A stretch of DNA of 63,869 bases, filler included, from 13 parts of 13 records of this genome joined end to end with filler, not necessarily neighbours in it, one strand, 5' to 3'. Shown: positions 295-63,869, numbered from the whole stretch's first letter. Notes: generated by a model not told the origin, from the sequence alone. Made by a program: numbers and translations.

Positions 295-2517
295 TCAGAT
301 CAAATAGAATGTTCTGACCCCTAACTGCACCACCTCTGACCAGTCACTGGGCTTGCTCCACTGGTTGCTGCCAATCTCGGCCCGCACACGGAACCGGTAC
401 GCCCCGCCCGAATGCAGTCTACTTATTGTACAGACTCTGCTCGTGTGTCCATCCACCACCTGTCCGGCCCATCAGCACAGCTGCTCGGGCCGCCTCTTGC
501 CTCTACTGCGCCATCGTCCTCCTCGGCGCCGGGGCTTTGCAGCATGTACTCCATCCGGTACCTTGGTATCGAATCTGGCCACGGGCTCGCCCCCGCCCTC
601 GCTCCAGTCCGCACCGGAAGGCCCTCGCGGGGCCGCGTCCCAGACCAGCGTGACGCTGTCCTTGGTGCACTTGACAGGGGTCGGCCGGGGGGGTGGCGGG
701 CCGTTAGGCTCCCAGCCGTGCTGCGCCGGGGCGGCCCGGATCGGGGACTTGAGCAGCGGCCTGCGCAGGCTTGACCGGATCCAGGCAGCGGGCACCGGGT
801 CGGGCTGGGCTGGGGGCTCTCGTTCGGCTGCTCTATGTACTGGGACATGGCTTGCCGGATCTCGGCAGCTACATGTGGCGAGATCTTGTCCATTATTGTC
901 TGCCGGCCCTGATCGGATCCGCTGAACGGCCAGGCACCTTGGCTGCTGTGATGTCGTCCTTCGTCGGGGTCTGCGAAGGGCTGCGCGGCTTGGACGCCCT
1001 GGGCAGGCTGCCGTGCGAGCTAAGCACCTGCCCTCAGCTCAGACGCGCTGGCCAGACCGCCGGCTGCCTGGAGCAGGCTTTTGTCCAGTACTGGCATCAG
1101 CCGCTGCAGGTTGGCGAGCGTGTTGCGCGACAGCCCGCCCGACGGCACCCGGAAGGCCCAGTCGCCCATCGCCGGCGACTCGGATATGACCTGCTGGTCG
1201 TCGGCCCGCACGATCGACTCGGCCACTCCGTAGGCCACGTCGGCTTGCGAGAGCGTGTCGCTCGTGTGGCGCATGTTGCTGTTGATTGCCTCAAGCTGCC
1301 TGGTGCACTCCTCCTCGACCTCAGCAAGGATCTCCTCCTCCCTCGCCAGCAGCGCCCGGTGCAGCGCCTCGAAGTGCTCCCTAGTCGTCTCCACTGACGC
1401 GTTCGCCGCGGCCACCACCGCTTGCGCGTCCGCCTCCAGCACCGCCTCCGCGTGCTTCACCCCCACAATCGTCTGCCGCAGCTTCCCCGACGCCTCCTGC
1501 GCCTCCAGCTTGGCGTCCGCCGCTCGCTTCCAGCCTGTGAAGCTGCCCCCTGCCGGCTGTCCCCCCATGAGCCCTGCCAGCTGCGCGGCGCACACCTGTC
1601 GAGGCTCACGGGCAGCCACCGGCGGCCGCTCAGCCGGCATGTAGCCTGGCAGCCCCGTGTTGGGCACACTGCCCGCCATCAGCGGGGCTCGGGACCGGGG
1701 GCACCTCTCGCGGTACCGCTGGCCTGCCTTCTCCATCGCCGGCAGCCTTGGCTCCGGTGGCGTGAGCACCAAGGCCTCAAGCGCCTCAGGGTAGAGGTTG
1801 TAGCTGCCCCGCCGGTGAGCCGAGCCCGCGGGCGCCGGCACCGCTCGCCCGGGGTGTTGGGCCTCCGGTTCTGGAGTGTGGCTGACGCCTGGTCGACCAG
1901 CTGCCTCGTGTTGTTGATCTGGAGCTGCCGGCGAAGGAACTCGTCCGACTCGCCCCACTGGTGCTCCCACGGCTGCGACTGGGGCGCGGCGTACGCCTGC
2001 TGGTCCTGCTTGTCGCACGCCAGCTTGAGCGACCTGCCCGGCCCTCGGCATCCCGCAGACCGCCCCCGCACTTGGTCTTTTCCTGCAGCTCGTCCAGCTG
2101 GGCGTTGAGCGAGCGCATCACCGCCTCCTGCACAGGGCTGAGCCAACCGGCGGGGCCAACCGCCACCGTCGGCGGCGAGGAGCCGTTTTCGGCCCCGAAT
2201 CCGGCGAGCGAGCTGGGCAGTCCGACATCTCGCATCTCTGTCGACAACAGCATCTCATGCAGTGGGCGGCCAGCCATCGGCTCCTGGGCGGGCGGCGGGG
2301 GCTCCGGGGTGTACGCCGGCTGGAAGCTCGGCCCGGCCCCGTGCGCGAAGGCCGCCCGGAACTCGTCCCGGTCGATCACGCCGTCCCGGTTGGTGTCGAT
2401 CGCCTCAAACTCTGATTCGACCGGCCCGACCGAACGGTCCAGCGCCGGCTCCCGGGAGGGCTCGCGCGCGTCCATCGCCGACTGGATCTCCTGGCGCAGC
2501 GCCTTCCACCGCCCCAT
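295..2517 (-). CDS. EF-hand + coiled-coil + C-terminal fibronectin type III protein (9 exons)
   Basis: EF-hand DTNRDGVIDRDEF; long coiled coil. After removing 8 introns of 35-41 nt (two GC-AG: 460-500, 1028-1067) the C-terminus reads SVTLVWD...YRMEY...LHSGGAYRFRVRAEIGSNQWSKPSDWS, an FN3 signature. Stop TGA 295-297. Start uncertain. Confidence 0.75.
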
Positions 2518-2622
2518 CTCGGCCCGCTTGGCGCACCACCGAGCCTGTCACGCTGTCTGCGCCAGCCTATCCACGCATTCTTGAACGAATCGTTTCCGTT
2601 GTTTTTGGGCCATGCAGGCGTG

Positions 2623-3471
2623 ATGCAGCGGCCCACTCCGGCGGAGGCCGCGGCGTACCTGCGGGACGGGGTGGTGCTGCTCAAGGCGGTGTTGGGCCCG
2701 GAGGAGCTGGAGCTGGCCGCCCGGGCCGTGGCCGGTGCTGTGGCCCGCCCAGGCCCGTTCGCTGAGTTCATCCAGCCCGGCCAGACCGGGGAGGAGGGCT
2801 GCACCGAGTGGGTGATGTTCCAGGACCAGTTCGCCTCGCGCCGGGTGCCCGAAATGGCCGCGCTCGCCCGCAGCTCCAGGCTGGCTGGGCTGATCGGTCG
2901 GCTGATGCGATCGGAGACCGCTTCCTTCTTCTATGACCACACGATTGTGAAACGGCCGAGCGGGCGGTCGGGCGGGTGCATCCCGTGGCACCAGGACCTG
3001 CCGTACTGGCGGATCGACGGGTCACAGGTCGGGTCGGTCTGGCTGCCGCTGGACCGTATGCCAGCCCAAGACGGGGTGCGATGGCTGATCGGATCGCACC
3101 GGTGGGGGCTGTTCAGGCCCAGGCACTTTGCGGACGCCTCGCCGTACGCCGGGACCGAGCAGATGCCCAGCATGCCGGACATCGACCGCATGATCGCGGC
3201 CGGCCAGGCGACTGCGGTCCAGTTTGAGGTTCAGCCGGGCGACCTGCTCGCATTTGACGCCCGGATTGTGCATGGCTCACGGGGCAACTCGAGCCGGGCC
3301 GAGCACCGGCGGGTGGCGCTCAGGTTTGGGGGAGACGACGCGGTGTACCGAGAGCGGGCTGGGGAGACGGCGATCCCTACGGCAGACGTGCAGCACGGGC
3401 GGCGAGACGGGGATCCGATCGGGTGCGAGGCTTTCCCGATTGTGTGGCGCAGCGCGCATGCCAAGCTATGA
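2623..3471 (+). CDS. Phytanoyl-CoA dioxygenase (PhyH) family Fe(II)/2OG oxygenase
   Basis: PWHQD (HxD), VWLPLD, GSHRWG, PGDLLAFDARIVHGS and RR motifs; intronless. Confidence 0.9.
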   Translation: MQRPTPAEAAAYLRDGVVLLKAVLGPEELELAARAVAGAVARPGPFAEFIQPGQTGEEGCTEWVMFQDQFASRRVPEMAALARSSRLAGLIGRLMRSETASFFYDHTIVKRPSGRSGGCIPWHQDLPYWRIDGSQVGSVWLPLDRMPAQDGVRWLIGSHRWGLFRPRHFADASPYAGTEQMPSMPDIDRMIAAGQATAVQFEVQPGDLLAFDARIVHGSRGNSSRAEHRRVALRFGGDDAVYRERAGETAIPTADVQHGRRDGDPIGCEAFPIVWRSAHAKL

Positions 3472-3502
3472 CGGTTGGTTAAATACTGTTATTTGAATTT
3501 AT

Positions 3503-6445: not shown

Positions 6446-6545
6446 NNNNNNNNNNNNNNNNNNNNNNNNNNNNNNNNNNNNNNNNNNNNTTAATTAATTA
6501 ANNNNNNNNNNNNNNNNNNNNNNNNNNNNNNNNNNNNNNNNNNNN
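6446..6545. other. Artificial contig spacer (first of 12)
   Basis: N44-TTAATTAATTAA-N44 (stops in all six frames). Others at 11058-11157, 18060-18159, 22073-22172, 26057-26156, 29873-29972, 33481-33580, 40379-40478, 46018-46117, 50008-50107, 54226-54325, 59270-59369. Confidence 0.99.
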
Positions 6546-6757: not shown

Positions 6758-7826
6758 TCATTCCTCTCCCACTTTCTCTTGTTCGCTATGCGGCGATTGC
6801 ACACTCAAAATTAAAATTGCCCGGTGTCCGGGGGTTTCCATGCCTGCTTTCTCGATCAGACGATCTAGCAAGATGCCGCCTGAATTCAGGTTGCAAGCCA
6901 CTTGCTGCATCAACTCCCAAGAAAGAGCCGCTGTTCCCAATACGCGTGTATACTGCGATAGCCCCAGTGGCTTTAATCTCGATGCAAGCTCAGGATCGAA
7001 GTCATCTCTGTCCTCGGGCTCTTGGGCAAGTTCGGTCATTGCTTGTCCCCAAGGCCTTGCTGCAAAATCCATGCACACCCCAGAACAGTATAGGAAGAGA
7101 CCGACTGCAATCAGTCCGAGTATCAACCCACTCACAGCGCACGCCTGCACCCTAAAGCTGTCCCAAGCCAGCACGTGACCCACTGCCTCCGTTATTATGC
7201 CCACCATCAGGAGTATAAACGTTGGTGGCCCGAGTGAATAGTGGATGAAAAACTGAGTACCGCACTCCATAAGAAAGGCCCGTCGCCTCAAGATAGGGAT
7301 ACTATGGATACTCAGAGTCGCGTAGACACAGGAACCGACAGCAATCAGGCAGGTGGGCGAGAGGGTACACCTGTGCAACCGGTAACCGCACAGATTCACA
7401 GCAGGATGACCAGCAAAACCACGAAATGCCATAAAGCGTGGTGCGGCCTGGGTTCATGCTACCGTCAATCATCGGCTCGCTGGTGTAAAAGTCTCTCCTG
7501 AGCGCAAACTCTGTAGCCATCACGCCAAGCAGTGCATAGTAGAGCGCAACCATGGTCAGATTCGAGTCGGTTAGGTCCACGATCCGATGTGCATCGTCGG
7601 GAAGCATATACCTATGTATACCTCTGTTCAGAGGGTGCAATCCTCCGAGAAGGAGCAACGCGGCCGTATACCAAACCCGGCCTGTTGGGTGCCACTCCCC
7701 TAGCGGCCTGCGTTCCAACTCACTAACCTTTGCATTCAGGCGCTGCTCCTGGCGGTCAGGTCCCGCCTCTGCCTCCTCGCAGCTGTCGACGTGATGCCGT
7801 CCGCGACAAGCAGCCAGCGAGATCAT
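6758..7826 (-). CDS. Multi-pass membrane protein with C-terminal SAM-like domain
   Basis: Several hydrophobic helices across two frames joined by a 40-nt GT-AG intron (~7371-7410); tail LKPLGLSQYTRVL...LIEKAGMETPGHRAILI resembles SAM. Confidence 0.6.
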
Positions 7827-7901
7827 CGGCACTGTCCGACCCACGGGGTGCCAGGATTGCCGTTGCCACTGCACACCACCCGGCCGACTCACCCGAAGAC
7901 A

Positions 7902-9377
7902 ATGAAGACTTGGGCCGTCTCTGGACTGCTCACTCTGCTGGCCGGGGCTGCCTCCGCCCTGGGCGGGCTCGACCTGACCCCGTTCGTCTTGGCCGGGGAC
8001 CACCAGGGCGGGCAGCAGGCCGCCAAGGTGCAGTTGCCTGGCGACCCGCTCGGGCTCAGCTCGTACGCCGGATTCGTAGAGACTTCCCCGGGCCGGCACA
8101 TGTTCATGTGGTACTTCCCGGCCCAGACCGGCGAGGCCGACGCCCCGCTCCTGATCTGGCTCCAGGGCGGACCGGGCGGGAGCTCGCTCTTTGGGTTGTT
8201 CTCCGAGATGGGCCCGTACTCGCTATCGCCGGAGCTCGGGTTGGTTGACCGGCCGTACAGCTGGAATAAGAAGTACGGGATGCTGTTCATCGACAACCCG
8301 GTGGGCGCCGGATTCTCGTATCCGGACGAGATCGACGGGCCGCGTGGCTACTGCACCGACACCAAGGGCTGCATCTCGGACAATTTGTACAGCCTGGTGC
8401 AAGCCTTTTATAAGATCTTCCCACAGCAGCTGAGCGTACCTCTCTTCATCACCGGCGAGAGCTATGGAGGACACTATGTCCCCGGGCTGGCACACAGGGT
8501 CCACAAAGCCAACTTTGCTCTTGGGCAATGTGCTCAAGATTCAGATTGCCCTGCCTCGTCCTACTGTGTCCGTCCGCACCCCCCGGAGCCGGGCATGTGT
8601 CACGGGGCGCGGGCGAGCAGTGGCGATCAGATTGTACCGCTGCGGGGGATAGCGGTGGGTGATGGCTGGATTGACCCGGTCAACATGATCCCAGGCTACC
8701 CAGACATGTTCTTCAACCAAGGGTTAGTCTCGCTTAAACAGAAGGCGGTCATCCAGGATTACTGCGACCGGTGCGTGGCCCAGATCAAGGCGGGCAACAT
8801 GACTGCCGCCTTTGAGATCTGGGACGTGATGCTGAACGGTGACATCTTCCCGTACCCCAATCTCTTCCACAACATGACGGGATCCAACGACTACGACAAC
8901 TTCCTTCGGACTGATGCACCCAAAGAGTTCAGCCTATTCGCCGCCTATGTCAATCAGTCGGCTGTTCGCGCCGCAATGCACACCGGCGACGTGCCCTTCG
9001 GGGCGGGCAGCCGGCAGTGTGAGATGCACTTGGTGCCAGACTTCCATGTGAGCCTTGCTGCTGAGCTAGTCGACCTGCTCGAGGCTGGCCTGTACCGGAA
9101 CTTCATCTACAGCGGGCAGCTGGACGTGATCATCGGCGCGGCGCTCACTGAGAGGTTCCTGAACCTGCTCCCGTGGGCGGGACTCGAGCAGTACCGCGCG
9201 GCCGACAGGAAGGTGTGGCGAGACCCGACGGCGGAGGACCCAGTGTCCGGGTACGTAATCGAGGCTGGAAACCTGACGCAGGTCCTGATTCGCGGGGCTG
9301 GGCACATTGCGCCCTACGATCAGCCGCGCCGCAGCCGGGACATGATAGATCACATGGTGCTCGGCACGCCGTTCTGA
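7902..9377 (+). CDS. Secreted serine carboxypeptidase (S10, CPVL-like)
   Basis: Signal peptide; WLQGGPGGSS, FIDNPVGAGFSY, TGESYGG (catalytic Ser), YSGQLD, GAGHIAPYDQP; intronless. Confidence 0.95.
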   Translation: MKTWAVSGLLTLLAGAASALGGLDLTPFVLAGDHQGGQQAAKVQLPGDPLGLSSYAGFVETSPGRHMFMWYFPAQTGEADAPLLIWLQGGPGGSSLFGLFSEMGPYSLSPELGLVDRPYSWNKKYGMLFIDNPVGAGFSYPDEIDGPRGYCTDTKGCISDNLYSLVQAFYKIFPQQLSVPLFITGESYGGHYVPGLAHRVHKANFALGQCAQDSDCPASSYCVRPHPPEPGMCHGARASSGDQIVPLRGIAVGDGWIDPVNMIPGYPDMFFNQGLVSLKQKAVIQDYCDRCVAQIKAGNMTAAFEIWDVMLNGDIFPYPNLFHNMTGSNDYDNFLRTDAPKEFSLFAAYVNQSAVRAAMHTGDVPFGAGSRQCEMHLVPDFHVSLAAELVDLLEAGLYRNFIYSGQLDVIIGAALTERFLNLLPWAGLEQYRAADRKVWRDPTAEDPVSGYVIEAGNLTQVLIRGAGHIAPYDQPRRSRDMIDHMVLGTPF

Positions 9378-9633
9378 TCTGTTTTGTACGAGAACGAGTC
9401 AGCATACACCGAGGCTGTCATAGCCATGGTCATAGCGTAGACCTAACATTAAAATTGACCATGTTATGAGACGACGTTACGACGTTATGAGCTGGCTGCA
9501 AAGTCGCTCATCGTCCTGCTGCGCCGTGTCAAGTACAACATGCAGTTGCCAGCTGGCCGCACGCGCTGAGTTCACGGGTGACTGATCTTGGTACCGCGGG
9601 AGCGTCGATCGCCAGGCCGAACCAGGAGTGGGC

Positions 9634-11057
9634 ATGTCTGGCGGCCTGCGGGAGGACCGGGTGGTGGAGGCGGTGCGCTTCCTCACCAATGACCAGGCAC
9701 TGCCCCGGACCGCGCCCCGCTTGTGAGCCGGCAGGCAGGTCCGGGCTGGTACCAGGGAGGACAAGTTGGCTTTTCTGCAGAAGAAGGGTCTCAGCCAGCT
9801 CGAGTGCGACGAGGCGTTTAGGCGGGCTGGACTGACGAGCAGCCCGGCGGCTAATAATACAACCGGTCCGTGGTCCAGCACCCAGCAGCACCGGCCCAGC
9901 CAGCCGGCCCAGTACGCTCCCCCGCAGGTACCCCACCACGGCGGTCGGCGGCTTATGTTCTCGGGGGCTCAGACGGTGCAATATGGGATGCTCCCGCTGC
10001 CACCGCCGCCCGAGGTGCGCCTGTGCCCCTGCAATTCTGACCCGATGGACAGCCGTCGCCCCCCGTCTGGCGAACCATGCTACTGGGCGTCGGGGCACTC
10101 GGTACCGTGGGCCTGGCCTTCGCAGCCGGCATGCGCTGGTGAGCCGGCGTGGGGGCGTGCTGGATGAGTGGTCGCGCAGGTTAGGGGAATGGAAGTCTGC
10201 TGACACGCAGAGCCCAGGCGACGACCAGCCGGGGGCGGAAGCTGCGGCGGCGCCGACTGAATCGGCACCCTGGAGGGGCAAGGGGGCTGAGGCCGAGCAG
10301 AACGGCAAGCTGGAGCAAGAGATCCAGGGGTACCTGGGCCCAGCTGGCCATTTGCGGCGGCGAGTGAGTGTGGGGCAGGTTGAAAGATCTGCTTAGAGAG
10401 CAGGCGAACGACTTCCGCGAGCAGATAAGGAGGCTGGAGACAGAAGCGGCGGCCAACAAGGCCGTGCAGGACGAGAGACACCGGTCTGCGGAGATGGCCG
10501 CACTTAAGGCCGCCGCCGCAGCCAAGGCCGAAGCCAAGGCCGAAGCGAAGGGCGAGTCTGCTGATGACAAGACAGTAGAGTCGAAGCGACCTTTCTCTAC
10601 AGCCCCGGGTAGCTGGCATTGCGCCAGCATAGGTCTGACTGATGCTGCTGTTCAGGTCGGACACTTGGACCGAGCGGCCGGGCCTGGCCATACTCAAAGC
10701 CGCTAGAACGGGCGCAGACTGCTCCTGCCGAGGTTGCAAACCAATCAGACATGCCAGCTGGGCCGGAGGCTGGGCAACAGCAACAGGAGCAGCCACAGCA
10801 GCCTCTCCCCGTCGTGCAGGAGCAACAGAATGGCTTCCAGCCGCAGCAGGCAGTGCAGCCGGCCCCGTTGGCTGAACAATCGCCTAATTCTGTCCAACCT
10901 TTAGAACAAGCAGCCCCAACTGTGCAGGCATATCGACCGCAGCAAGCAAACCCTTTCCAGCCACTGCAAGCTAGCCCTGCCCAACCGCAACAAACTAGCC
11001 CCGCCCAATTGCAGCAAGCTAGCCCCGCACAGCCCCAGGGGTATCAGCCTCAGCAAG
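9634..11057 (+). CDS. PEX14: Peroxin Pex14 (3' truncated at contig end)
   Basis: Spliced N-terminus MSGGLREDRVVEAVRFLTNDQ|VRAGTREDKLAFLQKKGLSQLECDEAF is the Pex14_N signature, followed by a TM segment, coiled coil and Q/P-rich tail. First intron 9697-9738 is GC-AG and contains an in-frame TGA. Confidence 0.9.
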
Positions 11058-11157
11058 NNNNNNNNNNNNNNNNNNNNNNNNNNNNNNNNNNNNNNNNNNN
11101 NTTAATTAATTAANNNNNNNNNNNNNNNNNNNNNNNNNNNNNNNNNNNNNNNNNNNN

Positions 11158-12037
11158 GAAGAAGAAGAAGAAGAAGAAGAAGAAGGAACAGCCGCGGGCC
11201 GAGCCGGCTTCCGCGGACTGCGTCGAGCCGAGTTGTGCGGAGCAGTCCGGGCCGGAGCCGGTGACCGGCAAGCCTGGCAAGCGCCTGCGCAAGCGGGACC
11301 GCTGGAACAAGCCCGAGCAGAGTGCCCGACGCCACCCGTTCGAGGCCGACATAACCGACCACGCTGAGACGCCCCAGTCGGCTTACCAGGACCTCGCGCC
11401 GCTGCTGCACCAGCTCGCCAGGGCCAGAGGGGTTACGGGCCGGGCGCTCCCGATTTGGGACCCGTACTACTGCGAAGGAAGCGTGGTCCGGCGGCTGGCC
11501 GGTCTAGGGTTCTGTGCCGTGATCAACAGGAATGTAGACTTCTACACTTCTCCAGCCCCGGCGCATGAGGTGATGGTGACCAACCCTCCCTTCTCGGGCG
11601 CCCACCTGCAGCGGATCGTACAGTTCTGCGCCGGCCGAGACACGCCGTTTGCGTTGTTGATGCCCTCGTTCGTGCTGGGCAAGCCCGTGTGGCAGAGCCT
11701 GGTGGGTCAGATGGATCCAAAGCCGTTCTACGTGGTGCCCCACCGCCGGTACAATTTCCTACCCCCCTCCTGGGCCATCCGCAGCCAGACTGGCGCGGCC
11801 AGCACCTCGCCGTTCGCCACCTTCTGGTATTGCTGGATGCCAAAGTCTGTTGACTTTCGGTCGACACAGTGGGACAAGAGCCGAGTGGCCACGTTCTGGT
11901 CGCTGGAGGCGGTGCCGTCTGAGCATCGGGACGTGACTGACGCAGCCAAGAAGCGGCCGAATCCCAAGATGAGGAAAAAGCTGGCAGCCAAGCGCAAGAA
12001 GCTAGCCGCTGGCTATGGGGGTCGACAGCAATGGTGA
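11158..12037 (+). CDS. NPPF-motif amino-(N6-adenine-type) methyltransferase-like protein (5' truncated)
   Basis: IWDPYYCEG (motif I-like), DFY, VMVTNPPFS (motif IV), PFALLMP; poly-Lys N-terminus from a (GAA)n run and a basic C-terminal tail. Confidence 0.75.
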
Positions 12038-12518
12038 GCCGGTGGTTAGAGTGTATACATGATTGTACGGTTGTACGAGTACGAGTGCAGTACTCTCCGT
12101 GCTACACATTGTGAAGCTCACGATTGAGATTTCGTGGACATCTACTACTCGTACTGTGGGAGTCAATAAATTTTATACAAGTAAACATTTTAGTTTGTGA
12201 TTGAGAATGAGATCTTGATTTCAAAATAACGTGCTTTCCACGGGTGGTTTCTCAACTTAGCCTGTCAAGTCCGGCTTCGTGATCATGGTGGGAAAGCTAT
12301 AGATTCCGGAGAAGTTTTTGTTCGTATGTGTTCGCGCCGGGAGCGCCGGGAGCAAAGATGGGAACAGGCCAGTTCCCGGAGATTCTGGACGCTCGCCCTC
12401 GGGAACCACTATTTCACATTCCCATGCGTCATTTACTGGAACATTCACTAGAACATTTATGGGAAAATTCAAGGAATTCGACAAGTCTGGACCCGGAGCG
12501 ATGCTCCCAACGGACAAA

Positions 12519-12880
12519 ATGCTCAGAGCACTGCGGCGGAGCCCAGTGGCCAAGGCCCCTCTGGGAGTGGGCGAGATGGTCGGCGGGCCAGGCGGGTGGC
12601 CAGCGAGCCCGGGCCAGGTCGTGATCGGGGTGGTGGCCGCGGTCATGCTTGGGGGGCCCAAGGCGGTCCGGGACAGCCGGGGGGCCGGGCGGCAGCGGGG
12701 GCTAGGTGTTGCCCAAGGTGGCCCAGTTCACAAAGAACCTCAAAGAGGCGGTGGAGGACGCCTCAAAGGCTGGCGCACCGCAGCAATCCGGGGTGAGCTC
12801 TTCGGCGCTCTGGGGCGAGCGGAGGGCAGGGGGCGGACGGAGCGGAGAAGCCTGGGGATAAGCCAGATTCGAAGACCTAG
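12519..12880 (+). CDS. TatA/TatB-family twin-arginine translocase subunit with putative mitochondrial presequence (4 exons)
   Basis: Exons 12519-12578, 12618-12662 (or 12665), 12706-12792, 12830-12880 give MLRALRRSPVAKAPLGVGEMVVIGVVAAVMLGGPK(A)VLPKVAQFTKNLKEAVEDASKAGAPQQSGGADGAEKPGDKPDSKT*: Glu-containing short TM, GP hinge, amphipathic helix. Alternative ATG at 12501. Confidence 0.75.
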
Positions 12881-13143
12881 CTGACGGGGGTATGAGGAGG
12901 GGCGGCATTGCGTGCCAGCTGGATAGCGCACACGGGTGCGGCGGAATATAGTGGACCATCACTGTACTATTACACTATCATATTGCATGTAATAAGTATT
13001 GCAATTCTTCCAGTGCGCTCATGTCGAGTTCGAGTACTTACAATACGTATGACTTTATCAACACCTCCACCCACCGGCACAGTACGCAGGTCCAGACGAT
13101 CCCGGACCGGCCTACTCGTGCGGCTACTTCTCCCCCAATAGCT

Positions 13144-13641
13144 CTACTCATCCTCGGGCTCGCTTTCATGCTCGCTTTGGACCAGGCAAAGCCGATGAAG
13201 CTCGTATGGAGCCCCGGGGACCAGCCACTCGCGCCGGTGCTCCAAACGGCCGTACCCTCGCACCGTCTCGATCCTGTGCTGCCCGAGATCGTCCGTTAGA
13301 TCGCTCCGCTTCCCGACCACCACCGCCAGTCCGTCCGGCCGCTCGTCCAGCCAGTCCGACACAGCCTCGGCCCACCACCCGCCGTCCCAGGGGGCAGGCC
13401 CCACCACGAGCAGCACGCTGCACTCGCCCGCGTACCGCCGCACCGCCGCCCCCGCCTCCAGCCGCTCCACCCCGGCCGCGGCTTGGAGGTCTGTAGCCCG
13501 CACGGTCAGCCCAAGCTCGTCCTGGATCGCAGCGGACAGCGCCCCGTCCCCGGCCCCACACTCGAGCAGGGCGCGGTCCGACGGTCGGATCTGCCGGCCG
13601 ACCGCCCTGAGCACCACCCGATGGGCCGAGGCGTTGCCCAT
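13144..13641 (-). CDS. Small class I SAM-dependent methyltransferase-like protein
   Basis: LLECGAGDGALS (motif I) and VRATD (motif II); 165 aa; intronless; ATG directly after the BBIP1 stop. Confidence 0.65.
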   Translation of the reverse strand: MGNASAHRVVLRAVGRQIRPSDRALLECGAGDGALSAAIQDELGLTVRATDLQAAAGVERLEAGAAVRRYAGECSVLLVVGPAPWDGGWWAEAVSDWLDERPDGLAVVVGKRSDLTDDLGQHRIETVRGYGRLEHRREWLVPGAPYELHRLCLVQSEHESEPEDE

Positions 13642-13830
13642 TTAGTTGGGTTCGGGAGGCTGCTGGGAGGCGAGGTTTGCGGCTACGGTCTCCATCTGCT
13701 CGATCTTCTGGAGGGTGACCGACTTGAGCGGCATGATCTTGGGCTTGCACAGCACCTCGCTCAGGTTGCCCTTCTCCGAGTACACCAGCCCCGCTTTTGG
13801 AAGCACCTCCGTCGGCTTGGCAGCATCCAT
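13642..13830 (-). CDS. BBIP1: BBSome-interacting protein 1 (BBS18/BBIP10)
   Basis: EVLPKAGLVYSE...VLCKPKIMPLKSVTLQKIEQM matches the BBIP10 core (EVLPKxG...VLCKPKLLPLKSLTLEKLE). Confidence 0.92.
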   Translation of the reverse strand: MDAAKPTEVLPKAGLVYSEKGNLSEVLCKPKIMPLKSVTLQKIEQMETVAANLASQQPPEPN

Positions 13831-13877
13831 GGATATCGGGCTTGTTGAGCTCAAAATAACGGAATTTTTTTGAGTCC

Positions 13878-15520
13878 ATGGCGCTGGTGGTCGACCTCTC
13901 CGCCCCTGCCGGCCCTGCGGCGGCGGCGGCCACGGGGCCGGGGCAGGCCCAGGCGCCCAGCCGGCCGGCCGACGAGTAGCCCCCGCTGCGGGGCTGGTCT
14001 CACCCGGCCGCAGGCTGGCCGCCAGCCAGGCTGACCTGTTTGTGGCCGTGTCGGAAGGCGACGCGCCCCGGATGCAGAAGGCGCTCGCCCTGCTCGGTGC
14101 CCGCCGGCCCCGGGCGCGGGCGAGCCGGCCGGCAGACTACCCAGTGGACTGCTTCAACCAGGACAGCATGAGCCCGCTGGCAGTGGCCGCAGTGTCGGGA
14201 CACCATAAGGCGCCCGGGCTGCCCGGGTGCCCCGCCGACGGGAGTCAGGTGATAGAGCGGCTCATTCGACCGTTCGGGACTAAGCCCGGGGCCGACGTGG
14301 ACACCCGGAACCGGGGCGGCGCCACCGCGCTGATGTTCGCCGGTGCGGCCGGCCTGGGGGTAGGCCGGGAGCAGGAGGGGCAGTGTGGCACGGGCGGCGG
14401 CAGTGCGCGCAGGCAGCGGGCGGGCGGGGAATGAATGAGTCTTGGGCAGGTGCTGTTGGACCACGGGGCCGACTGCCAGGCGGTGGATGAGGAGGGGATG
14501 ACCGCGCTCATGTGGGCGTTAACTGCAGAGCAGGAAGCCATAATCGAGGCGCGACCAATGCCCCCGACTGCTGGCGAGCGAGCGGGGCAGATGCTGCTCC
14601 CGTGGGACAAGGGCAGCCTCCAGACGGCCGCCGAGTGCGGGTACATCGAGATGGTCTCCGGTGCCCCGCGCTGCGGGCGCCCGGCTGACGAGCCGGCAGC
14701 GTTGCTGGATCGAGGGCTGGGCGTGGATAGTCTGGATGCCGAGGGGAACACAGCGCTGCTCCGGCTGGCCATGTCAACGCTTCATTTCGACCAAGAGGAC
14801 TGGGCCGAGGTGGAGACTAGCGGGGCGGTGGCAGAGCTGCTAGTGGCGGCGAACGCAAACCTTGAAGCGAGCGACCCTTTGTACGAACAGACGGCTCTCG
14901 GATGGGCGCTCAAGACGTGTAAGCCACGGCTGGCCGAGAGGCTGAGGCAGCTTGGGGCGGACGTTGAGGGACACGCAGCCCAGCGGTACAGGGTGCGCGG
15001 CCAGACAATGCTGATCAGCACTGTGACCGAGCTGCTGGAGCCGTCGACAGACTCCCCTTACGATGTAAGTGCTCTGCCCATAGTCTTGGCCAGACACCGG
15101 CCGCAGGTGTGGCCGCTCCCGCTCAGGGTGGTGGCCGAGAAGTACCTGCCAGGGCTGGTGGAGCAGCAGATTCGGATGGGAGCTCGTGTGGAGGAGATTG
15201 ACAGCGCAGGCCGGTCATGTCTGATGCATGCAGCGGCGCTCGGGGCTCAGGACGTTGTCGAAAAGCTCATTCAGTCGGCCCAGGTCGACTTGATGGACTT
15301 TGAGGGCCAGACGGCGCTGGTGTATGCCGCGCTGGAGGGGCACGAGAATGTGGTCGAGTTGTTGCTCTCTGCTGGGGCCAATCCAAGGGTGCGCGATCGT
15401 AACGGCAACCAGCTGTGGCAAGCGGCCGAATTAGCTGGCGAGTTCTCGGTGTCGCGGCTGATTCATGCAAATGCCGGGCTTGCGGACAAGAGTGCAGACG
15501 ACCCAGCGCATAGACGGTGA
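13878..15520 (+). CDS. Ankyrin repeat protein (8 exons)
   Basis: After splicing, canonical repeats appear, e.g. TALMFAVWHGRRQCAQVLLDHGAD and GQTALVYAALEGHENVVELLLSAGANP. Three introns are GC-AG (14210-14248, 14413-14449, 14549-14590). Confidence 0.9.
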
Positions 15521-16149
15521 GCGCGCTTCGATGCCGGCGTCTGTCCGGCCTCATGACCAAACTCAAATTTCGTGGCGATCATAATACGAGTACATGTACT
15601 AGAAAAGCTTAAGAGAACAGGCTGACACAGAAAGTCAGTTTGAAGAACTTTCTAGAGTTAAATAAAGTAACGCCGGCGTGGGTGATGGACCGTTGTCATT
15701 CATGATGGACAGTGGCTGCCCACGGAACCGGCACAAACTCCGCTTTCTGATCTACGGGCATGCGTTTGAACCCCTAACCTTAGACATTGATGAACCTAGC
15801 GTCACAAAAAAAACGCATCAATTGCTCATTCACGGCATGTTACTGCTGTTGCAGGGCGGCTTTGAGTACCGAACCTTTACGTAATCCGGGTTATATAGGT
15901 CTGTAAAAAAGAGAGACTGACCGGACCCTACCGACGCCGCCCACCAGCAGGCTTGATTTTTTCTTGGGCTTGTTTTATCTAGTACCCGTGGACCTAGACC
16001 TTGCCTCGTGTCTATGCTCGCTGAGAGGTCTGGCGGGTCCGCCATAGCTTCTGCTGAATTCAAGCTCTAAAAATAATCCACGAATGGGCCTGCGGCGGTC
16101 CCGGAGAGGTGCCCGCGCGGTGCCCCAGCGGATGCAGTGAGCTTCCAGC

Positions 16150-18059
16150 ATGACGGTGGCCGGCGCGTTCGGCGCACCTCCCTCCAAGCAGCCCAAGGCC
16201 AGTCAGGTGGCCCGCGGCCCGGCAGGTCTCTCACCCGCCGGCAGATGGACATCCCGGACCCCCTCGACCGCATCCTGCAGATCCGGAATATGGCCGACCA
16301 CACGCACAACATCTCCTCCACAGTGCCCATCACGCAGGCGCTGTTCCGCCCCAGCCCCCCCGAGGTTGCCCCCGGCTCTCCCGCCCCGGACTCATTCGGG
16401 CGCAGGTGATGTTCGACAGCTTCGAGCCGCTGCAGCGGTACGAGCAGACCCTCACGTTTAGAAACAACGACTCTGTCGGCCGGCGGCTGCGGGTGGTGCC
16501 CCCCAAGAACAGAGTCTTCTCGGTATCGGCTCCTCAATTCGCCGGTGGCAGCGAAAAGGCCAAAATCGCCCCTGGGATGGAGGTGCGCTCGCGGCCTGCC
16601 CCAGACCAACGCGGCGTCAGGTGTCGTATGTGGTCCGATTTGCGCCGGAGGAGCCGATCGACTACGCGTACGACCTGGAGTTTATCACCGAGCGCGAGCG
16701 TTTCCTGGTCCCTGTGCGAGGGTGGGGTCCACGCCCTCTGCTCCAGTTGCCAGACTCGTACGAGTTCGGGAACGTGGAGGCACGGTACTGCTCGGAGCGG
16801 ACTTTTCTGGCCAGGAATATAGGGAACAAAGCGGCCACAGTCCAGTTCAACGCCACGGAGCCGTTCTCCGTGCTGCCACGACAGATTGGGCTGCCGCCTG
16901 GCGACGCAGTTCAGGTGAGGCTCGGGTGCGAGCCTACGGCGCTCGGGGAGCACAGCGGGGAGCTGCTGGTGGAGTACGGTGCGGGGTCGGTGGTGGTGCC
17001 CCTCTCCGGGTGCGCGTTTGATGCCGAGATCATGACGGATAAGTCTGTCCTAGTGTGTGAGCCGACTTATGTCACACTCACTGCACAAAAGACTTTTAAG
17101 ATTAGGAACCGGTCAGAGGTGAAAGTGCGGTTCGAGCTCAAGGTGAACGCCAACGAGCAGGAGGATGACGACCACAGGCAGGATGAGCTGGCCAGACTAG
17201 AGGATTCTTACGAGCAGGAGCTCGCCGGGTTGACGGCGGCTGATCTCGAGCTTGACGACGAGTCGAGCGAGGACGAGGAGCTCGGGATGACGTTGTCGGG
17301 CGCGGCGCTCGAGCGCAAGTACGAGCGGCTGCGGAAACAGGTGGTGGAGGACCCTCAGCTGTTCACACACGACATCTTCGCGTGTGTGCCTCAGTCTGGG
17401 TTCATATATCCTGGAGGCGAGGCAGAGATTCTTGTGAGCTTCTCGCCGGCGATTGCAGTGGAGTATATAGCCTCAGTCTACTGCTATGTGGAGGGCCGCT
17501 GCACCCGGATACCTGTGCACATTAAGGGCCGCGGGATTGGGCCACGCGTGTGCTTCTCGTATGCGGGGTTGAACCTGGATGATCTCTACCTCAACACCGC
17601 TTACGAATACAAAGCGGAGCTCGAGAACCGAGGCGAGATCGAGGCCCGGTACCAGCTGAATCCTAGCAACAGCAGCTACGGCCAGGCGTTCAGCTTTGAG
17701 CCAGAGACCGGAGTGCTCCAGGTGGGCGAGACTCGCGTGATTAAAGTGTCCGTGCTTTCGCGAGAAGCCGGCCCATTTGGTGAGGACTTCAGTTGGACAA
17801 TACAGGGCTCGCCCAACGACCTGAAGATCCGGTTCCAGGGCCAATTTGTTGGACCGAGTGTTAGCTTTGATGCTGATATGCTCGATTTTGAGAATGTCTC
17901 CTTTGGGTTCATCAACTCAAAGATCTTCAGGCTGTGCAACGCCTCCCCTATTCCAGCCGCTTGGAGCCTGGCTGTGACCCACGACGGGCAGTTGCTCGAC
18001 AAGGAGTGGGACGTGGTGCCTAGCAACGGAGTGCTACTGCCTCATGGCAAGCAGAAAGT
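16150..18059 (+). CDS. HYDIN: Hydin, central-pair axonemal protein (N-terminal part, truncated)
   Basis: LFRPSPPEVMFDSFEP...LTFRNND, IAPGMEVSYVVRFAPEEPIDYAYDLEFITERERFLVPV and tandem ASH/Ig-like domains; introns 16365-16405 and 16583-16620. Confidence 0.9.
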
Positions 18060-26517: not shown

Positions 26518-29500
26518 TCACAAAGCAAAGGCAGTTTCTCGCAAATTAAAGAACGTGCTTACCAACTCTGGGTCGCCATGATTTGATACGGCCTGCCCGA
26601 ACGAGGCATCGTCTCTATTTGCCATCTCGACTTCAGTATTCGGAAGTCTGCCAAACTCAACCCGGCTGTTCTTGCATCGCCGTTGGCACCAATATACTAT
26701 CAGAAGCACTGCATAGCATCCACATGTCAGCTTTACGACCGCTGGGCAAGCTTGCTACCGAGGAGCACACTCAGCACAGCACCGGCTAGCAACCCAAGCA
26801 AAGACGGGACCGACAATAGAACAGATGGCTCGGCTGAAGAAGCCTCTACGAATGGACTAGTGGTAGCTGTGAGCACAGCTAGTGGAGCTGTAATCGCTAT
26901 TCCCCGCTGTTCTGCACTATCCACCAGCTGGGCGGCGAATCCGTCCTCCGACCTTTTTGCTATTTGAGAACGAATCTGGTCAAAGCCCATCGCCGGCTCA
27001 GAGACAACTCCAAATTCCTGCACATCAGTGAGCAGCTGGTGCCCTGGCGCCACTTACCACGCTCACTCTTGAGGACCTCCGAGCAGGGTTGATGTGAATG
27101 ATGTACACTGCGTTGGTTTTAAGCCCACATATGCGGGCAAAGGCTTCAACGAGGGACGCTTTCATCTTGTCAGATTCGGCAAGCTCGAATGAAAGGCTTA
27201 CTTCTACCAGGAACGTGTGAAGGGTCTCCCTCAGTGCCGGAGTTGGACTACTACTTGTTTTCGCTGTTTGGCCTGGTGCAGAACTAGGCGGAGCTGTACC
27301 TGTTGGAATTGAAGGTGTAGGCAGGTTTGTGGGTGCTCCTGTAGGATCTACAGTCGGTTGAGATGTGGGCGTGACTGTGGGGTCTCTTGTTGGTGTCCTG
27401 GTGGGAGCCGTTGTTGGCGTCCTGGTGGGAGCTGCAGTCTGGTGTGTGGTCGGCTTCCTTGTGGGAGTGCCTGTCGGGCGAGCTGTTGGATGCTTGGTGG
27501 GAGTTGCTGATGGAGAAGAAGGTGATAATGTGGGTGTCTTAGTCGGTAGCATTCTAGAGGGTTCCAGCGGAGCTGGGAAAGTATTGCTTGTTGCCGAGGC
27601 CTCATGTTCAACTTCGACACAAGCCACTGAAGAACTCCAAGCAAGACTACCATGGACCTGCCAAGCCTTAACTTAGACGGCGGCCTGCCCAAATCCCTAT
27701 GCAAGACAGCTGAGCACATGATGGTCTCCCACACTCATCTGCCAGCCTGCATTGGTTCTCGCATTTGCCACGTGTGACTGTGGCCTGAATGCTGGATGCG
27801 CATCTGTCCTCGATTCAGCCCCACAGCCTGGGCCAGCACGCTACCACGATGCGTTTGACCCCAGTTTTGATCAACTGTGGCCATAGCAACGTAAAGATAC
27901 ACAGATGGTCTGGCTGGCATTGTCAAAGCTAACTCTGTCAACAAATATAAATCAGCTACGAGCTGGACACAGTCGAGCTACCAAATTGCCTTGGTGACGG
28001 ACTGTCAGAGAGCTTGTGCCTAAAAGACCTAATAAATACAGCGCATGGTTGAGCAATACCCGTTGCCACCACTAAGCACAGCAGAAGACTCCGCGCTTTC
28101 GGCGTCCAGATACGCCACTGCTGCTTCCGCTGTCCAAGGTGGTCAGAAAAGTGGTAAACATAATAGATACCGGTAGATGCGCGACATGAATCAATGTCGC
28201 CTTTCCAAGCTGTCCAGCGGAGCTTGGTCGAGTCTACATTGAGGGCACCACCCACGACCCACTGCACATTCACCTATCGCGGCCCAGTTGGTTTCTGGGC
28301 GCTCTGTATCGCGGATACCCGTGTTCCGGGTCGTATGCTGGCTGCCTGGCTGCCTGCATCTCGGTACTGGAAGTACACATATGGTTGCACCATTTCGCTG
28401 GTACCACCAGGCTTACATTCATGCCAAGGGCCGCTTACATGCCTAATCAGGGCGCAAAGGCGCATATTCCTCGGAATGTGCCCGTCGCCAGCCGCAGAAG
28501 TGCTGGTCCATCCATGGCTCATTCCTAAGGTCGCCTGCAAGGAGCTTGCCAGCAGTCCTGGCAGGCGAGGGCACCGATGGAGGTGTCTTAGCGTCCGCAG
28601 TCTCCACCAAAAAGTTAAAGGTTCGGAGCATCGCCGACGTGTACCGTGTTTTGTCAGCACTGACACATTTGATCAGCCCAGCAAGACAGCTGGCCAACCT
28701 GTAAGTACCGTGCTCAGGAAACGTCCTTGGAGTGCACGGTTGCGAAGCGGGACCATACCTGTACGTATACTAACCCAGCGGTTGACTGGGCACTACTTAC
28801 GATCCTGGAGTTGTATCCCATGATGCAGCGTATGCCCAGTCCTCCATGCCACCTGCTCGTGCTGGCCTGGCCTGCTTTCACTAAGGTCACCGTGCACAGG
28901 ATAAACCAAGTCGTTCAGCCGCTTGTGGGGGTAAGCCGACCCCCTAAAACTGTCCAATATCCGCTCAATCGCGTTAGCGCACAGGGCTACCTTCCAGCAT
29001 ACTGGCTCATTGCAGTCCCCAACAGTTGTTGCGCTGTCTCATCTGGACTGCAACCCCAGAGCCCTTGGCACGGCTTACAGGCTAGCAGGGGCGCCTGATC
29101 CTCTGCTTGTCTGGTATGTGTACGTTCCGGTTTCCAAGGTGGTTGAACGACCCCCATTCGTACGCAATTGCCTGCATCCCGCCGTGGAATGTTATGGCCA
29201 GCTGGAAAATATTCCGGCGCCACTGCCCACCCTCAGCCCCTGCAGCACCCAGCGTAGGAACCAGTTCGTTCAGCGCCCGGGCTGCGGTGGTTTGCATGCA
29301 CTGGCTCGGGTCCTGGTCGTACCTGGGCCACATTCAGCGGCACAGGCTGCTGCTCGCACCCAAAGTCTCGGTTCGGATCAATCCCGCGCTCAGCTCGCTG
29401 GTTCTGAAAATACCCCAACGCATTGGCCGACGGAACAATCCACACCTACTGCTGGCTGGCCGCGATCGGGCCTGCTCGAGTCACCTCGCGTCGATCCACC

Positions 29501-29872
29501 AGCTCGGCCAGCCATTGAGACCGGCTGGTGGCCGGGGCGCCGTAGTTGCCCACCAGCGCCCGAGCAAACTCGGTCACCTGCCCGCTGCATCCGCCCAGGG
29601 CCGCTCCCAGGGCGACTCACAGTGGTGGGGCCCACGCGTTCGTTGCCGTGCAGACAGCCGCTGAGCATCACCTGCGGCCTGCGGCCCTGGGCAGCCGGCA
29701 GCGACGGCTCGTGGGTGATCCGGGCGATCCACTGCTTGCATGGCCCGTCGCTCCCGCAAGATCCCGGCGAGGGCACCCCGAAGGCCTCCTGGGCGGTGTA
29801 GAGCTCGACCAGGTCCGGCCGGGCGGCCTCCAGCTGCTGCAGCGTGCGCACGATCGCCCCGTAGTCCAGGTA
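26518..29872 (-). CDS. Zinc carboxypeptidase (M14) with Thr/Pro-rich stalk and C-terminal TM anchor (5' truncated)
   Basis: HGNE, DPNRDF, ITFHGG...AYEWG motifs; PTxxPT repeats at ~27300-27550; terminal hydrophobic helix; many small introns including GC-AG 29048-29094. Continuity of the middle exons was not fully traced. Confidence 0.8.
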
Positions 29873-61197: not shown

Positions 61198-61330
61198 CTC
61201 GTCCCGGAGGGAGCCAGCCCAGGCCTGCCCGGATGATGCGGTGTGTCCGCTCAAACCGCCAATCACTCTCGGCATTGTCCTCAACCGCCAACAGCTTTTT
61301 GTGGGCCGCGAGTCGTCGCTGGCGAGCCGC

Positions 61331-62840
61331 ATGCTGGCCGGGGCGGCCGCGTGGCTGGTGGCCGGGCTCTGGCTGGCGGCCGGGTCGGGGCTGGGGGGCG
61401 TCCCGCAGGCCAGTGTGCTCGAGCCGGCCTATGAGGCGCCCGTGCGCTTGGGGCGGGCCGCGAGCCGGGGCAGATCCACCTGAACCCAAACCGGTCGGCC
61501 AGCCCTGGCGCCGAGGCTCGGTGCCCCACCCGCTGAGCCGCAGCCCACTCCTCGCCAGGTGGCCAGCGCCGCACTACCGCGCGCTCGGCATGACCAGCCA
61601 GACTGGCCAGCGGTTCGCCTGCTTCACACCGTCGGTCGCGGTGCGCCCGACCCGCCAGACCGGGCCCAGCCGGCGCAGTTCAACCAATCGGCGATCGAGC
61701 AGGCCGCAGTGGTCGGGCTGCCATCGGTGCCCGAACAGACGAGCAAGCTGCTCGGAGAGTGTTCGCTCTTCCGCGAGCGGGGGGACTTCTGGCAGTACGA
61801 GCTGTGCCACGGGAACAAAGTGGTTCAGTTCCACCAGCAAGATCCAATCTCGCCTCGCACACAGGCCCGCCAGCCGGTCGAGCGGGGGCGAGCTGGTGGC
61901 AGGTGAATCTGCTCGGAATTTACCTCAAGAAGACTGTCGAGCGTGATGGGACCATCAGGCACGAGTACCAGACCGGGTCCGGCTGCGTTCTGCCTAACGG
62001 GAAAATCCAGACAAGAAGCACCACGGTCCGGATGGTCTGCTCTGCGGCGTACAAAAAGGCCTCCCGGGCCCGGCTGCTGGCGGCGCAGCGCGATCCGGCC
62101 TCCAAAGGTCACATCGCAGACCTGCAGGAGCCCCGGCCCTGCTCGTACACTGTCTTGTTCTACACACCATTGGCCTGCTCGTGGTCGCCCGCCAAAGTAG
62201 CGGCCAGCTCGGCCGGCGGCTCGGCCAGCAGCCTGCTGCAGCGGTGCGGGCGTGTGATCTGAGGGCCTCAGGCAGGGCAGGCTGGCCAAGAGCTGTGTGC
62301 ACCTGATGGATACCTGGTGGACTTACGAGCTCTGCTTTGGCTCCCATCTTCGCCAATTCCGGGCCGAGAACCAAAAGGCATTAACCAGCAGCCTGGCCTG
62401 GGCTCAACCGGCCGGCAGGTCGTGGCCCAATTCTTCCTCGGGAACGCTACTCAGCAGAATTTCGTCACTAGCAAGGACGATATCCAATTCGATCAGGTGA
62501 GCAAGAAGCCGTTCCTGCTCCAGCACTACACCAACGGTGCCAGCCGAGCGAGGACTGGCCAATCCGGGCCAGGCTCGACTTGTGACTTGAGTGGCGTCCG
62601 GCGGACCACGGAGGTGCGGTTTGTATGCACCAAGGCGAGCGAGCAGCTGGCCACACTTGATATGGTCAAAGAGCTGGCCACTTGCAGCTACATGGCAGTG
62701 GTCTCCTCGCACTTACTGTGTCAGCACAAGGTGCCAGCTGGCTAGGTGCCGCTACTGAGCCTCGATCTCAGATGTTCCAAGAGCGAACACGCGAGAAGCG
62801 TGGAGTGTATTGCGTGCCCCAAATGTTGGGAGAATCTTAA
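61331..62840 (+). CDS. ER lectin with two MRH/PRKCSH domains (OS-9/ERLEC1-like), 9 exons
   Basis: Signal peptide; FWQYELCHG..VVQFH...YQTGSGC...RSTTVRMVC...EPRPCSY, and WWTYELCFG..LRQF...YTNGSTCDLSGVRRTTEVRFVC...ELATCSY. GC-AG introns 61865-61902 and 62378-62418 (probably also 61436-61473). Confidence 0.9.
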
Positions 62841-63173
62841 GCTATAGAGATTCAATGCACTTTAATTTTAAGCTTAGATGCCTTCCTAGCAAATTTGACG
62901 TGTAGTGCTCACAATAAAGAATTATAGCGTACAATTCTGATTGTATGTGTATGTGTATAAAAAGGTGTATAGGGGTAATATAGAGGTCTATCTAGACATA
63001 ATCTCAAGTGATTGCATTAATCAAATAATTATCTTCCAAGTGATCGTAATTTTCTAAGCTTGATTTGAAATCATTCAAGCACTTTAAATTTACTTTGGCC
63101 CTGCTCATAAATTTAATGCGGATATAAGTGCGGAAACATAATGCGGACACAATCGCTGCGTCACGAATCATGG

Positions 63174-63844
63174 TCACGTGCAATCGTTCCAGTTAGTTGC
63201 AGTTGCCTTCGGGGCCGGAAACGTCTTGGCAAGCTCACCGTTTGCAAATTGAGAGAGCTCAGCTCCATAAGCCCAGCCGGCTGTGTAGAAGACGGCTGGC
63301 TCGCCGAACTTGACTTCGGCATCAAAGTACTCGCCTTTGCTCTCATACTTGTCTGCTTCATGCCAGAGCCGAGTCCAGTTGCCCGCGGGAAGGTAAGCCT
63401 TGACCGTGGCGTAGGCATACTCTACTGTCCCAATAACCGGGACGGATCGCTTGTACTGGATTGTTTTAGAGAGCACCGGCACGATCATCAGATTCTGGCC
63501 AAACAAGAACTGCGTGTTCATCTCCCAGGTGTTTTTGTCCTTGGGATAGTGGAACAGCACTGGTCGGATCAGCGGATAGCCGAGAGTGGCCGCTTGCTCC
63601 ATCAGCGTCTGCCGGTACGGCTGCATGAACCTGAACAGCCGCGCGAACCGAGCAAAGTGGCCCATCGTGTCGCTGTCAGTAAACACCTGCCGCCCATAAG
63701 CCGCGAGCCGAGCGAGCCGGCTGCCTGAATGTTGGTGTTAGGCGCGTTCCCAAGGTGGGTCCGGAACACTGGCGAGAACACGTTCATCTCGGCCCATCGC
63801 ATCAGCAGGTTCTTGCTCCGGCAGATCTGCCCCAAGACCGTCAG
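63174..63844 (-). CDS. GH31 glycosidase, YihQ/sulfoquinovosidase-like (C-terminal part)
   Basis: RSKNLLMRWAEMNVFSPVFRTHLGNAP..NIQ|VFTDSDTMGHFARF...PLIRPVLFHYP...QFLFG, compared from memory with YihQ RSKELLLRW...MRTHEGN...TIAHFAR; GC-AG intron 63687-63724. Confidence 0.85.
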
Positions 63845-63869
63845 CCCCCCCCCCCCCCCCCCCCCCCCC

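Follow-up and report, generated by a model that had tools for sequence, protein, structure and literature searches.

GC-AG mini-introns with donors behind exonic AG in a GC-rich marine protist

Paramecium and the chlorarachniophyte nucleomorphs have mini-intron genomes, and dinoflagellate splice sites are known for GT, GC and GA donors. The introns described here come from a 63,869-base window (the whole stretch of DNA that was analysed), which is not a single locus but 13 contigs of 3.5-6.9 kilobases (kb) each, linked via N44-TTAATTAATTAA-N44 spacers (6446-6545, plus 11 more). The source organism is a GC-rich marine protist with genes full of introns of about 38 bases, and roughly one in six of the introns in the window (~14-20%) begins with GC in place of GT, which bears out the original prediction, made from this DNA alone, that GC donors are frequent.

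Elevated proportions of GC-AG introns are already known from GC-rich algae, and the window is a clear new example. In Emiliania huxleyi (65% GC) such introns make up 56% of 241 curated junctions and 61% of Cufflinks junctions, with nine GC junctions confirmed by reverse transcription PCR (RT-PCR); the GC donors were ascribed to base composition, and gene finders that expect GT were reported to mispredict the junctions (PMC4028052). Among the pelagophytes, GC-AG introns reach 14-17% in Aureococcus anophagefferens and ~14% in Pelagomonas calceolata, again ascribed to high GC content, compared with 0.32% in the low-GC relative Aureoumbra (10.1101/2024.10.30.620910). The figure for animals and plants is 0.4-0.9%, and GC 5' splice sites there have a stronger exonic and intronic consensus (PMC1557818).

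The window resembles E. huxleyi in being GC-rich and in combining GC donors with canonical AG acceptors. However, GC donors are the majority in E. huxleyi (56-61%), with a few GA donors in addition, whereas the window has no GA class. In addition, the passages of the E. huxleyi report cited here (PMC4028052) note neither introns of 36-42 nucleotides (nt) nor an AG-only context, both of which occur in the window. Pelagophyte introns average 103-177 base pairs and number 0.19-0.9 per gene, while those of the window are 36-42 nt long with up to nine per ~2-kb gene. In animals and plants, the compensation seen in U2-type GC-AG introns extends to positions +3 to +6, but in the window it is exonic only (AG in 10/10), apart from a purine at +3 in 9/10. 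Porospora cf. gigantea shares with the window a very narrow length class and a branch-type A near the 3' end, although intron length there peaks at 28 nt and the A lies at -6, as opposed to a mode of 38 nt and an A between -11 and -13 in the window (PMC9250747), and the main text of that paper does not mention "GC-AG". We found no description in the open-access literature searched that unites ~38-nt introns, ~15-20% GC donors and an AG context rule, and no lineage described there with ~38-nt GC-rich introns or GTGCG donors.

GC-AG introns placed by homologous proteins

The original prediction had listed 13 GC-AG introns. Each of these segments runs from GC to AG on its strand, spans 37-47 nt and is immediately preceded by exonic AG. 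Nine are proven, though for the one at 61436 the orthologues favour GC over a GT alternative, and two are probable, so that 11 of the 13 sites hold by protein colinearity or by an intron model, while one is undecided (12663) and one unsupported (29048). The nine proven segments are absent from the mature coding sequence, based on colinearity with orthologues that are uninterrupted and cDNA-like or with chains in the PDB, and all nine start with GC and end with AG.

Homologue searches were run with single exons, and the spliced comparisons were done by script. For boundary enumeration, both intron ends were moved by up to 21 nt with the frame kept, and each outcome was given an alignment score against the orthologues. 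Keeping any of the nine GC introns in the product lowers the score by 56-2872 alignment units, and replacing it with the best GT-AG alternative lowers it by 28-93. Ties occurred only when a boundary slid within a repeated AG or G, with no change to the mRNA. At 14210 and 14549, two shifts to non-canonical ends (AA-GT, GA-GG) outscored GC-AG by 9-12 units; we regard both as conservative residue swaps.

The ankyrin gene contains three of the proven introns. Its orthologues from the exon search are 59-63% identical and present as uninterrupted open reading frames (ORFs) on short contigs, and a seven-intron model of the gene is gap-free at every junction against all three orthologues listed here.

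13878-15520, plus strand: ankyrin gene, from orthologue colinearity
Ankyrin orthologues: P0002 (432 amino acids; contig L001 of 1499 nt, ORF at 63-1358), P0003 (413 amino acids on 1562 nt) and P0005 (EukProt Trinity transcript)
14210-14248, plus strand: GC-AG intron, 39 nt, phase 0, aag/GC...TCAG/gtg; junction SGHHK/VIERLI gap-free against the three orthologues
14384-14412, plus strand: 29-nt micro-exon between GT intron 14343-14383 and GC intron 14413-14449
14413-14449, plus strand: GC-AG intron, 37 nt, phase 0, cag/GC...GCAG/gtg; junction QCAQ/VLLDHGAD gap-free against the three orthologues
14549-14590, plus strand: GC-AG intron, 42 nt, in frame without a stop, gag/GC...GCAG/atg; junction EAIIE/MLLPWD gap-free against the three orthologues
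15065-15106, plus strand: GT-AG intron, 42 nt, in frame and stop-free, canonical GTAAGT donor, the eighth intron of the gene

Retention of 14210-14248 loses 56 units and its best GT-AG alternative loses 70; for 14413-14449 the corresponding losses are 2872 and 35. For 14549-14590 retention loses 63, and no GT-AG pair within 21 nt would keep the frame. The donor of this last intron was also found in public data: an aquatic metagenome run (X1) contains a DNA contig of 188 nt that spans 14433-14620 with six differences, one of them intronic (14569), and the GC at 14549-14550 is unchanged. Judging by these differences, the X1 contig appears to be from another strain or allele.

Alignment with the orthologues moved the preceding GT intron to 14343-14383, which leaves the 29-nt micro-exon. 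The residues that the micro-exon encodes, (V)WHGRRQCAQ, are colinear with AWHGHRQCVQ and the equivalent stretches across the three orthologues. The eighth intron shows only as a 14-residue insertion relative to all three orthologues, and its retention loses 72. This intron (42 nt) and those at 14210 (39 nt) and 14549 (42 nt) are invisible to ORF logic. A metagenome scan with the ankyrin alignment returned the 1499-nt contig of P0002 itself and an unrelated ankyrin contig, with no genomic DNA of a relative.

Two further genes, one encoding EF-hand and FN3 domains and the other two MRH domains, contain five proven introns.

~297-2517, minus strand: EF-hand/FN3 gene; orthologues P0122 and P0123 (56% identity)
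460-500, minus strand: GC-AG intron, 41 nt, phase 0, gag/GC...ACAG/gtg; junction GAVE/VVDG gap-free against P0122 and P0123
1028-1067, minus strand: GC-AG intron, 40 nt, phase 0, cag/GC...GCAG/gtg; junction LLQ/VLSSHGSLPRAS gap-free against P0122 and P0123
61115-62745, plus strand: two-MRH-domain gene; representatives P0124-P0127
61436-61473, plus strand: GC-AG intron, 38 nt, phase 0, gag/GC...GCAG/atc; junction PAYE/IHLN gap-free against P0125, P0126 and P0127
61865-61902, plus strand: GC-AG intron in MRH domain 1, 38 nt, phase 0, cag/GC...GCAG/gtg; junction PRTQ/VNLLGIY gap-free against P0124-P0127
62378-62418, plus strand: GC-AG intron in MRH domain 2, 41 nt, phase 0, aag/GC...GCAG/gtc; junction ENQK/VVAQFFLGN gap-free against P0125 and P0126

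The EF-hand/FN3 model shares its C-terminus, RTFYLI followed by the stop, with both P0122 and P0123. Retention of 460-500 loses 419 and that of 1028-1067 loses 1010, with losses of 28 and 30, respectively, for the best GT-AG alternatives. In the two-MRH-domain gene, the 32-nt GT alternative to 61436-61473 (61442-61473) loses 32 and has an intron-model score of 3.3, compared with 10.0 for GC. Retention of 61865-61902 loses 1020 and the best GT-AG alternative 42, and a PRKCSH profile match (positions 1-28) stops just upstream of this intron. No in-frame GT-AG alternative to 62378-62418 exists within 21 nt. The introns at 61865-61902 and 62378-62418 split their MRH domains alike, a few residues past PRKCSH position 28. 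A homologue search with the MRH exon 61903-62259 returned nothing.

The ninth proven intron lies in a GH31 gene fragment and was placed by contiguous residue numbering in four solved GH31 chains.

63174-63868, minus strand: GH31 (YihQ-like) gene fragment, reaching the contig end
63687-63724, minus strand: GC-AG intron, 38 nt, phase 0, cag/GC...GCAG/gtg

Residues 7-48 of the upstream exon correspond to residues 492-533 of 6pnr_A and residues 2-74 of the downstream exon to 535-607, which puts the first residue of the downstream exon at 534, directly after 533, and the same exact contiguity across the intron was found in 5ohs_A, 8r56_A and 5aed_A. Among solved structures, the fragment is nearest to YihQ-type sulfoquinovosidases (6pnr, 5ohs, 5aed, 8r56) and not to glucosidase II alpha.

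With regard to the source of the orthologues, P0005 and P0126 both start with MCIRDS, a start that is presumably typical of translated library adapters. This suggests that the two proteins derive from a relative that is uncultured or hard to grow and whose transcriptomes were made from low input.

Remaining candidates, controls and intron census

The four other candidates were assessed with an intron signal model trained solely on 20 proven introns.

9697-9738, plus strand: probable GC-AG intron, 42 nt, in-frame stop inside, PEX14 N-terminal domain
34796-34835, minus strand: probable GC-AG intron, 40 nt, phase 0, aag/GC...GCAG/att, Kelch-repeat gene
12663-12705 (GC, 43 nt) or 12666-12705 (GT, 40 nt), plus strand: undecided donor, both in frame
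29048-29094, minus strand: unsupported GC-AG candidate, 47 nt, phase 2

The first two are, on the evidence of this model, probable GC-AG introns. The candidate at 9697-9738 scores 6.1, compared with -5.7 for a 33-nt GT alternative (9723-9755), and the exon 3' of it matches Pex14_N profile positions 18-46 from its first residue, and also PEX14 chains in the PDB; the exon 5' of it, searched alone against the PDB and Pfam, gave no match, being too short. The candidate at 34796-34835 connects open frames of 74 and 113 residues, both with positive coding scores, and scores 7.3, compared with 0.2 for an in-frame 52-nt GT alternative (34796-34847). GT alternatives had been pointed out at two sites: at 61436 the orthologues prefer GC, while at 12663 the two donors are tied (6.7 for GC, 6.8 for GT). 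The candidate at 29048 has a model score of -1.2. Pfam searches of the ORFs around it gave only a sub-threshold Peptidase_M14 match (E = 0.013), in an upstream ORF. ORFs at 29085-29872 (minus strand) resemble zinc carboxypeptidase (M14); the gene finder gave no model there, and the introns of that contig are uncounted.

An exon-chaining gene finder, in which the permitted donor dinucleotides were toggled at a penalty of 10 (also 8), was used to compare GC with decoy donors. At a penalty of 10, adding GC to GT brought 10 introns and a score gain of 107.5, while each of 14 decoys added as a third dinucleotide on top of GT and GC brought 0-3 introns and a gain of at most 12.6. At a penalty of 8, GC gave 13 introns and 128.6, compared with 0-6 introns and at most 13.2 for the decoys. 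GC is the sole second donor class besides GT. We rejected sites of the dinoflagellate type, as GA added just one intron, with a gain of 0.5.

Other controls were less discriminating. When decoys were substituted for GC in the gene finder, they gave 0-12 introns compared with 12 for GC, so the counts were not separated; by score gain, GC ranked first (98.0, with at most 64.0 for decoys). A scan for intron signals by position weight matrix (PWM) only, across 16 donor dinucleotides, found GT to be self-enriched and GC to be indistinguishable from CG or TG. A frame-switch test requiring 25 open codons on either side did not separate GC from decoys, and was underpowered because the exons are short. 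Counting the pattern AG/XY...CAG/RT gave a weak enrichment (22 matches for GC, 5-19 for the other dinucleotides). In the gene-finder controls, the GC candidates themselves were the training set for the donor-flank matrix applied to GC and to the decoys; the evidence from homology depends on neither the gene-finder nor the motif controls.

The best gene models contain 45 GT and 14 GC introns. We discounted three of the GC calls (16188, 17936 and 41314), as none is preceded by AG and 17936 scores -10.6. Introns 15065-15106 and 1557-1595 are outside the gene-finder models. The models yield ~56-58 introns rather than the roughly 80 that had been counted by hand; 11 credible GC-AG introns represent ~19% of the former, and would represent 14% if the denominator were ~80. 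In the three genes fully resolved by orthologues, which were picked for having candidates, 8 of 24 introns are GC-AG. High G+C and at least about 10% GC donors, the combination expected of a GC-rich protist of this kind, occur together within the window.

The 13 joined contigs resemble a fragmented bin of a GC-rich eukaryote. The G+C per 4-kb stretch is mostly 0.56-0.66, and 0.50-0.54 in the region of ~44-56 kb; the contigs at ~46-54 kb also have few predicted introns, and given these low-G+C, intron-poor contigs, the bin may be non-uniform. The long open frames have Pfam matches of eukaryotic type, which include CFAP65/hydin-type Ig domains, DENN, PEX14, GH31, ankyrin and a sugar transporter. 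An Rfam scan of the window gave no matches, and there is no snRNA (small nuclear RNA) gene in it, nor any marker gene by which to place the lineage. A search for sequencing runs matching window positions 7000-16999 found no RNA run; 8% of the sampled words occur in two metagenome runs of DNA, one from an aquatic source and the other from seawater.

Intron anatomy and donor context

The introns belong to a single narrow length class, as had been predicted: all 20 proven introns are 36-42 nt long. Across 58 introns, A peaks at -12 (30 introns), -13 (20) and -11 (15). Each position from -9 to -4 is G in 31-45 introns and T in no more than 12, and C is found at -3 in 53. The A peak and the G-rich stretch from -9 to -4 point to a branch-like A followed by a G-rich tract, with no polypyrimidine tract. 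Both GT and GC introns have a G+C of 77-78% with ~10% T, and the two classes are alike in length range, 3' architecture and base composition.

The two classes differ in their donors and in the flanking exons. Proven GT donors follow the consensus CG/GTGCS, with CG before the donor in 10/14, G at +3 in 12/14 and C at +4 in 10/14; examples of CG/GTGC(C/G) are those at 14097, 14343, 14661, 61521, 61641, 62244, 62537, 575 and 1804. GC donors instead read AG/GCR. Exonic AG precedes 10/10 GC donors, compared with 1/14 proven GT donors (p = 5.6e-6) and 10/45 modelled GT donors (p = 6.3e-6), which confirms the predicted link between GC donors and exonic AG; GC accounts for about half of the donors that follow AG and for none of the others. 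The prediction that positions +3 to +6 are degenerate stands for +4 to +6, which are merely G/C-rich, but not for +3, where there are six A, three G and one C (n = 10). None of the 13 candidates has a U12-type GCATCC donor.

GC introns are also restricted in phase and in the start of the downstream exon. All ten are in phase 0, compared with 4/14 proven GT introns (p = 5.8e-4), which occur in all three phases, and the second exon starts with RT in 10/10 (GT in eight, AT in two), compared with 4/14. Modelled introns with AG/GT donors are intermediate (phase 0 in 6/10, RT in 5/10). Among the less certain candidates, 34796 obeys all three rules (AG, phase 0 and RT at the start of exon 2), while 29048 obeys the AG rule alone and deviates from the phase-0, RT pattern of the other 11.

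We also considered introner elements (mobile multi-copy introns), and rejected them because no near-identical pairs exist across the 58 introns. The best-neighbour score of the interiors averages 6.55, compared with 4.20 for shuffled interiors, and has a maximum of 9 over interiors of ~26 nt.

Explanations for the GC donors

We consider it likely that these are ordinary U2-type (major-spliceosome) mini-introns, about one-sixth of which have GC at the donor, a change that is allowed only after exonic AG and that occurs under GC pressure. Introns of 36-42 nt would be removed by intron definition, with both ends presumably recognised across the intron, based on a layout of donor G/GYRSS, a branch-type A 11-13 nt from the 3' end, a G-rich tract and a terminal CAG. 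The C at +2 is expected to cost one pair with the 5' end of U1, while A at -2 and G at -1 would restore two U1 pairs and U5 exon contacts may also compensate. Of the four terminal bases, that at +2 alone can be replaced by G or C, and in introns of 77% G+C, GC-biased mutation or gene conversion would drive it to C wherever the exon context makes the change nearly neutral, an explanation already put forward for E. huxleyi (PMC4028052) and pelagophytes (10.1101/2024.10.30.620910). While the introns, their boundaries and the AG context rule are direct results, the snRNA contacts and the evolutionary cause in this account are what we infer from them. The dependence on AG is the classical compensation for a +2 mismatch with U1, known from GC-AG introns of model organisms (PMC1557818), and hence argues for ordinary U2-type splicing rather than altered snRNAs.

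Several points weigh against this explanation. The compensation that it predicts is complete in its exonic part, but positions +4 to +6 do not match AGT, so these GC donors lack the +3 to +6 compensation of model organisms, the purine at +3 in 9/10 apart. The preference of GT donors for GTGC and the CG before 10/14 of the proven ones are not accounted for by the canonical U1 5' end, which does not explain +4, and simple U1 compensation does not predict the phase-0 and RT restriction of the GC introns. The G-rich 3' tract is left unaccounted for. With respect to sampling, the census covers the window only, that is, 13 binned contigs from possibly more than one organism, the two genes richest in GC introns were selected for testing because of their candidates, and splicing was deduced from orthologues at 45-63% identity. 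On account of the unexplained phase-0/RT limit, C at +4 and G-rich tract, two less likely explanations have to be considered, one based on two intron populations and the other on altered snRNAs.

The more probable of these, which we view as possible though unlikely, is that the window contains two intron populations: a phase-0 set in proto-splice sites (AG/GY...AG/RT) whose donors drifted from GT to GC, and a separate, perhaps younger, CG/GTGCS set. The uniform phase and exon-2 RT of the GC introns are consistent with this, as are the intermediate values of the modelled AG/GT introns, the CG before most proven GT introns and their spread over all three phases, and the GC-AG intron at about the same position in both MRH domains. 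However, the two sets do not differ in length, composition or the architecture of their 3' ends, no introns occur as near-identical copies, and no genomic DNA of a relative turned up in which intron positions could be compared.

The original prediction had favoured an altered spliceosome, in which U1, U5 or U6 recognition is changed and donors are set mainly by the exonic AG together with a length ruler. We consider this improbable. It would accommodate the departure of the GT consensus CG/GTGCS from GTRAGT, the GC donors without intronic compensation, the G-rich tract in place of a polypyrimidine tract and the restriction of lengths to 36-42 nt, but the need for AG is predicted by canonical U1, a GTAAGT donor is in use (15065-15106), and comparable rates of GC donors in GC-rich algae have been ascribed to base composition in published work. 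Nor is exonic AG a general selector of donors, as 35/45 modelled GT donors lack it, and a narrow length class is usual in mini-intron genomes, such as that of Porospora with its 28-nt mode (PMC9250747). A further reading, a two-grammar 5' splice-site code in which a GC-adapted U1 or U6 reads CG/GUGCS, mainly exon contacts read AG/GC and the G-rich tract replaces the polypyrimidine tract, seems to us quite improbable; if true, it would amount to a co-evolved recognition by snRNAs and U2AF that goes beyond tolerance of a mismatch.

It is hardly credible that open frames arising by chance in GC-rich DNA, errors of assembly or C-to-U editing account for the GC-AG calls: the PWM scan, the frame-switch test, the pattern count and the substitution of decoys for GC all fail to separate GC from decoys by number, but independent proteins place nine junctions to the exact residue, decoys added with GC retained gave at most three introns against 10, the DNA contig from a different strain retains GC at 14549, and editing would need to strike +2 in one of six introns.

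The organism represented by the window is a third, apparently independent, GC-rich marine protist with many GC donors. A gene finder that accepts only GT donors and expects introns of ordinary length would interrupt, or shift the frame of, a large proportion of its genes. Moreover, the clean AG rule makes the proposal that GC content drives GC-AG introns testable, by asking which 5' splice-site contacts replace the +2 pair.

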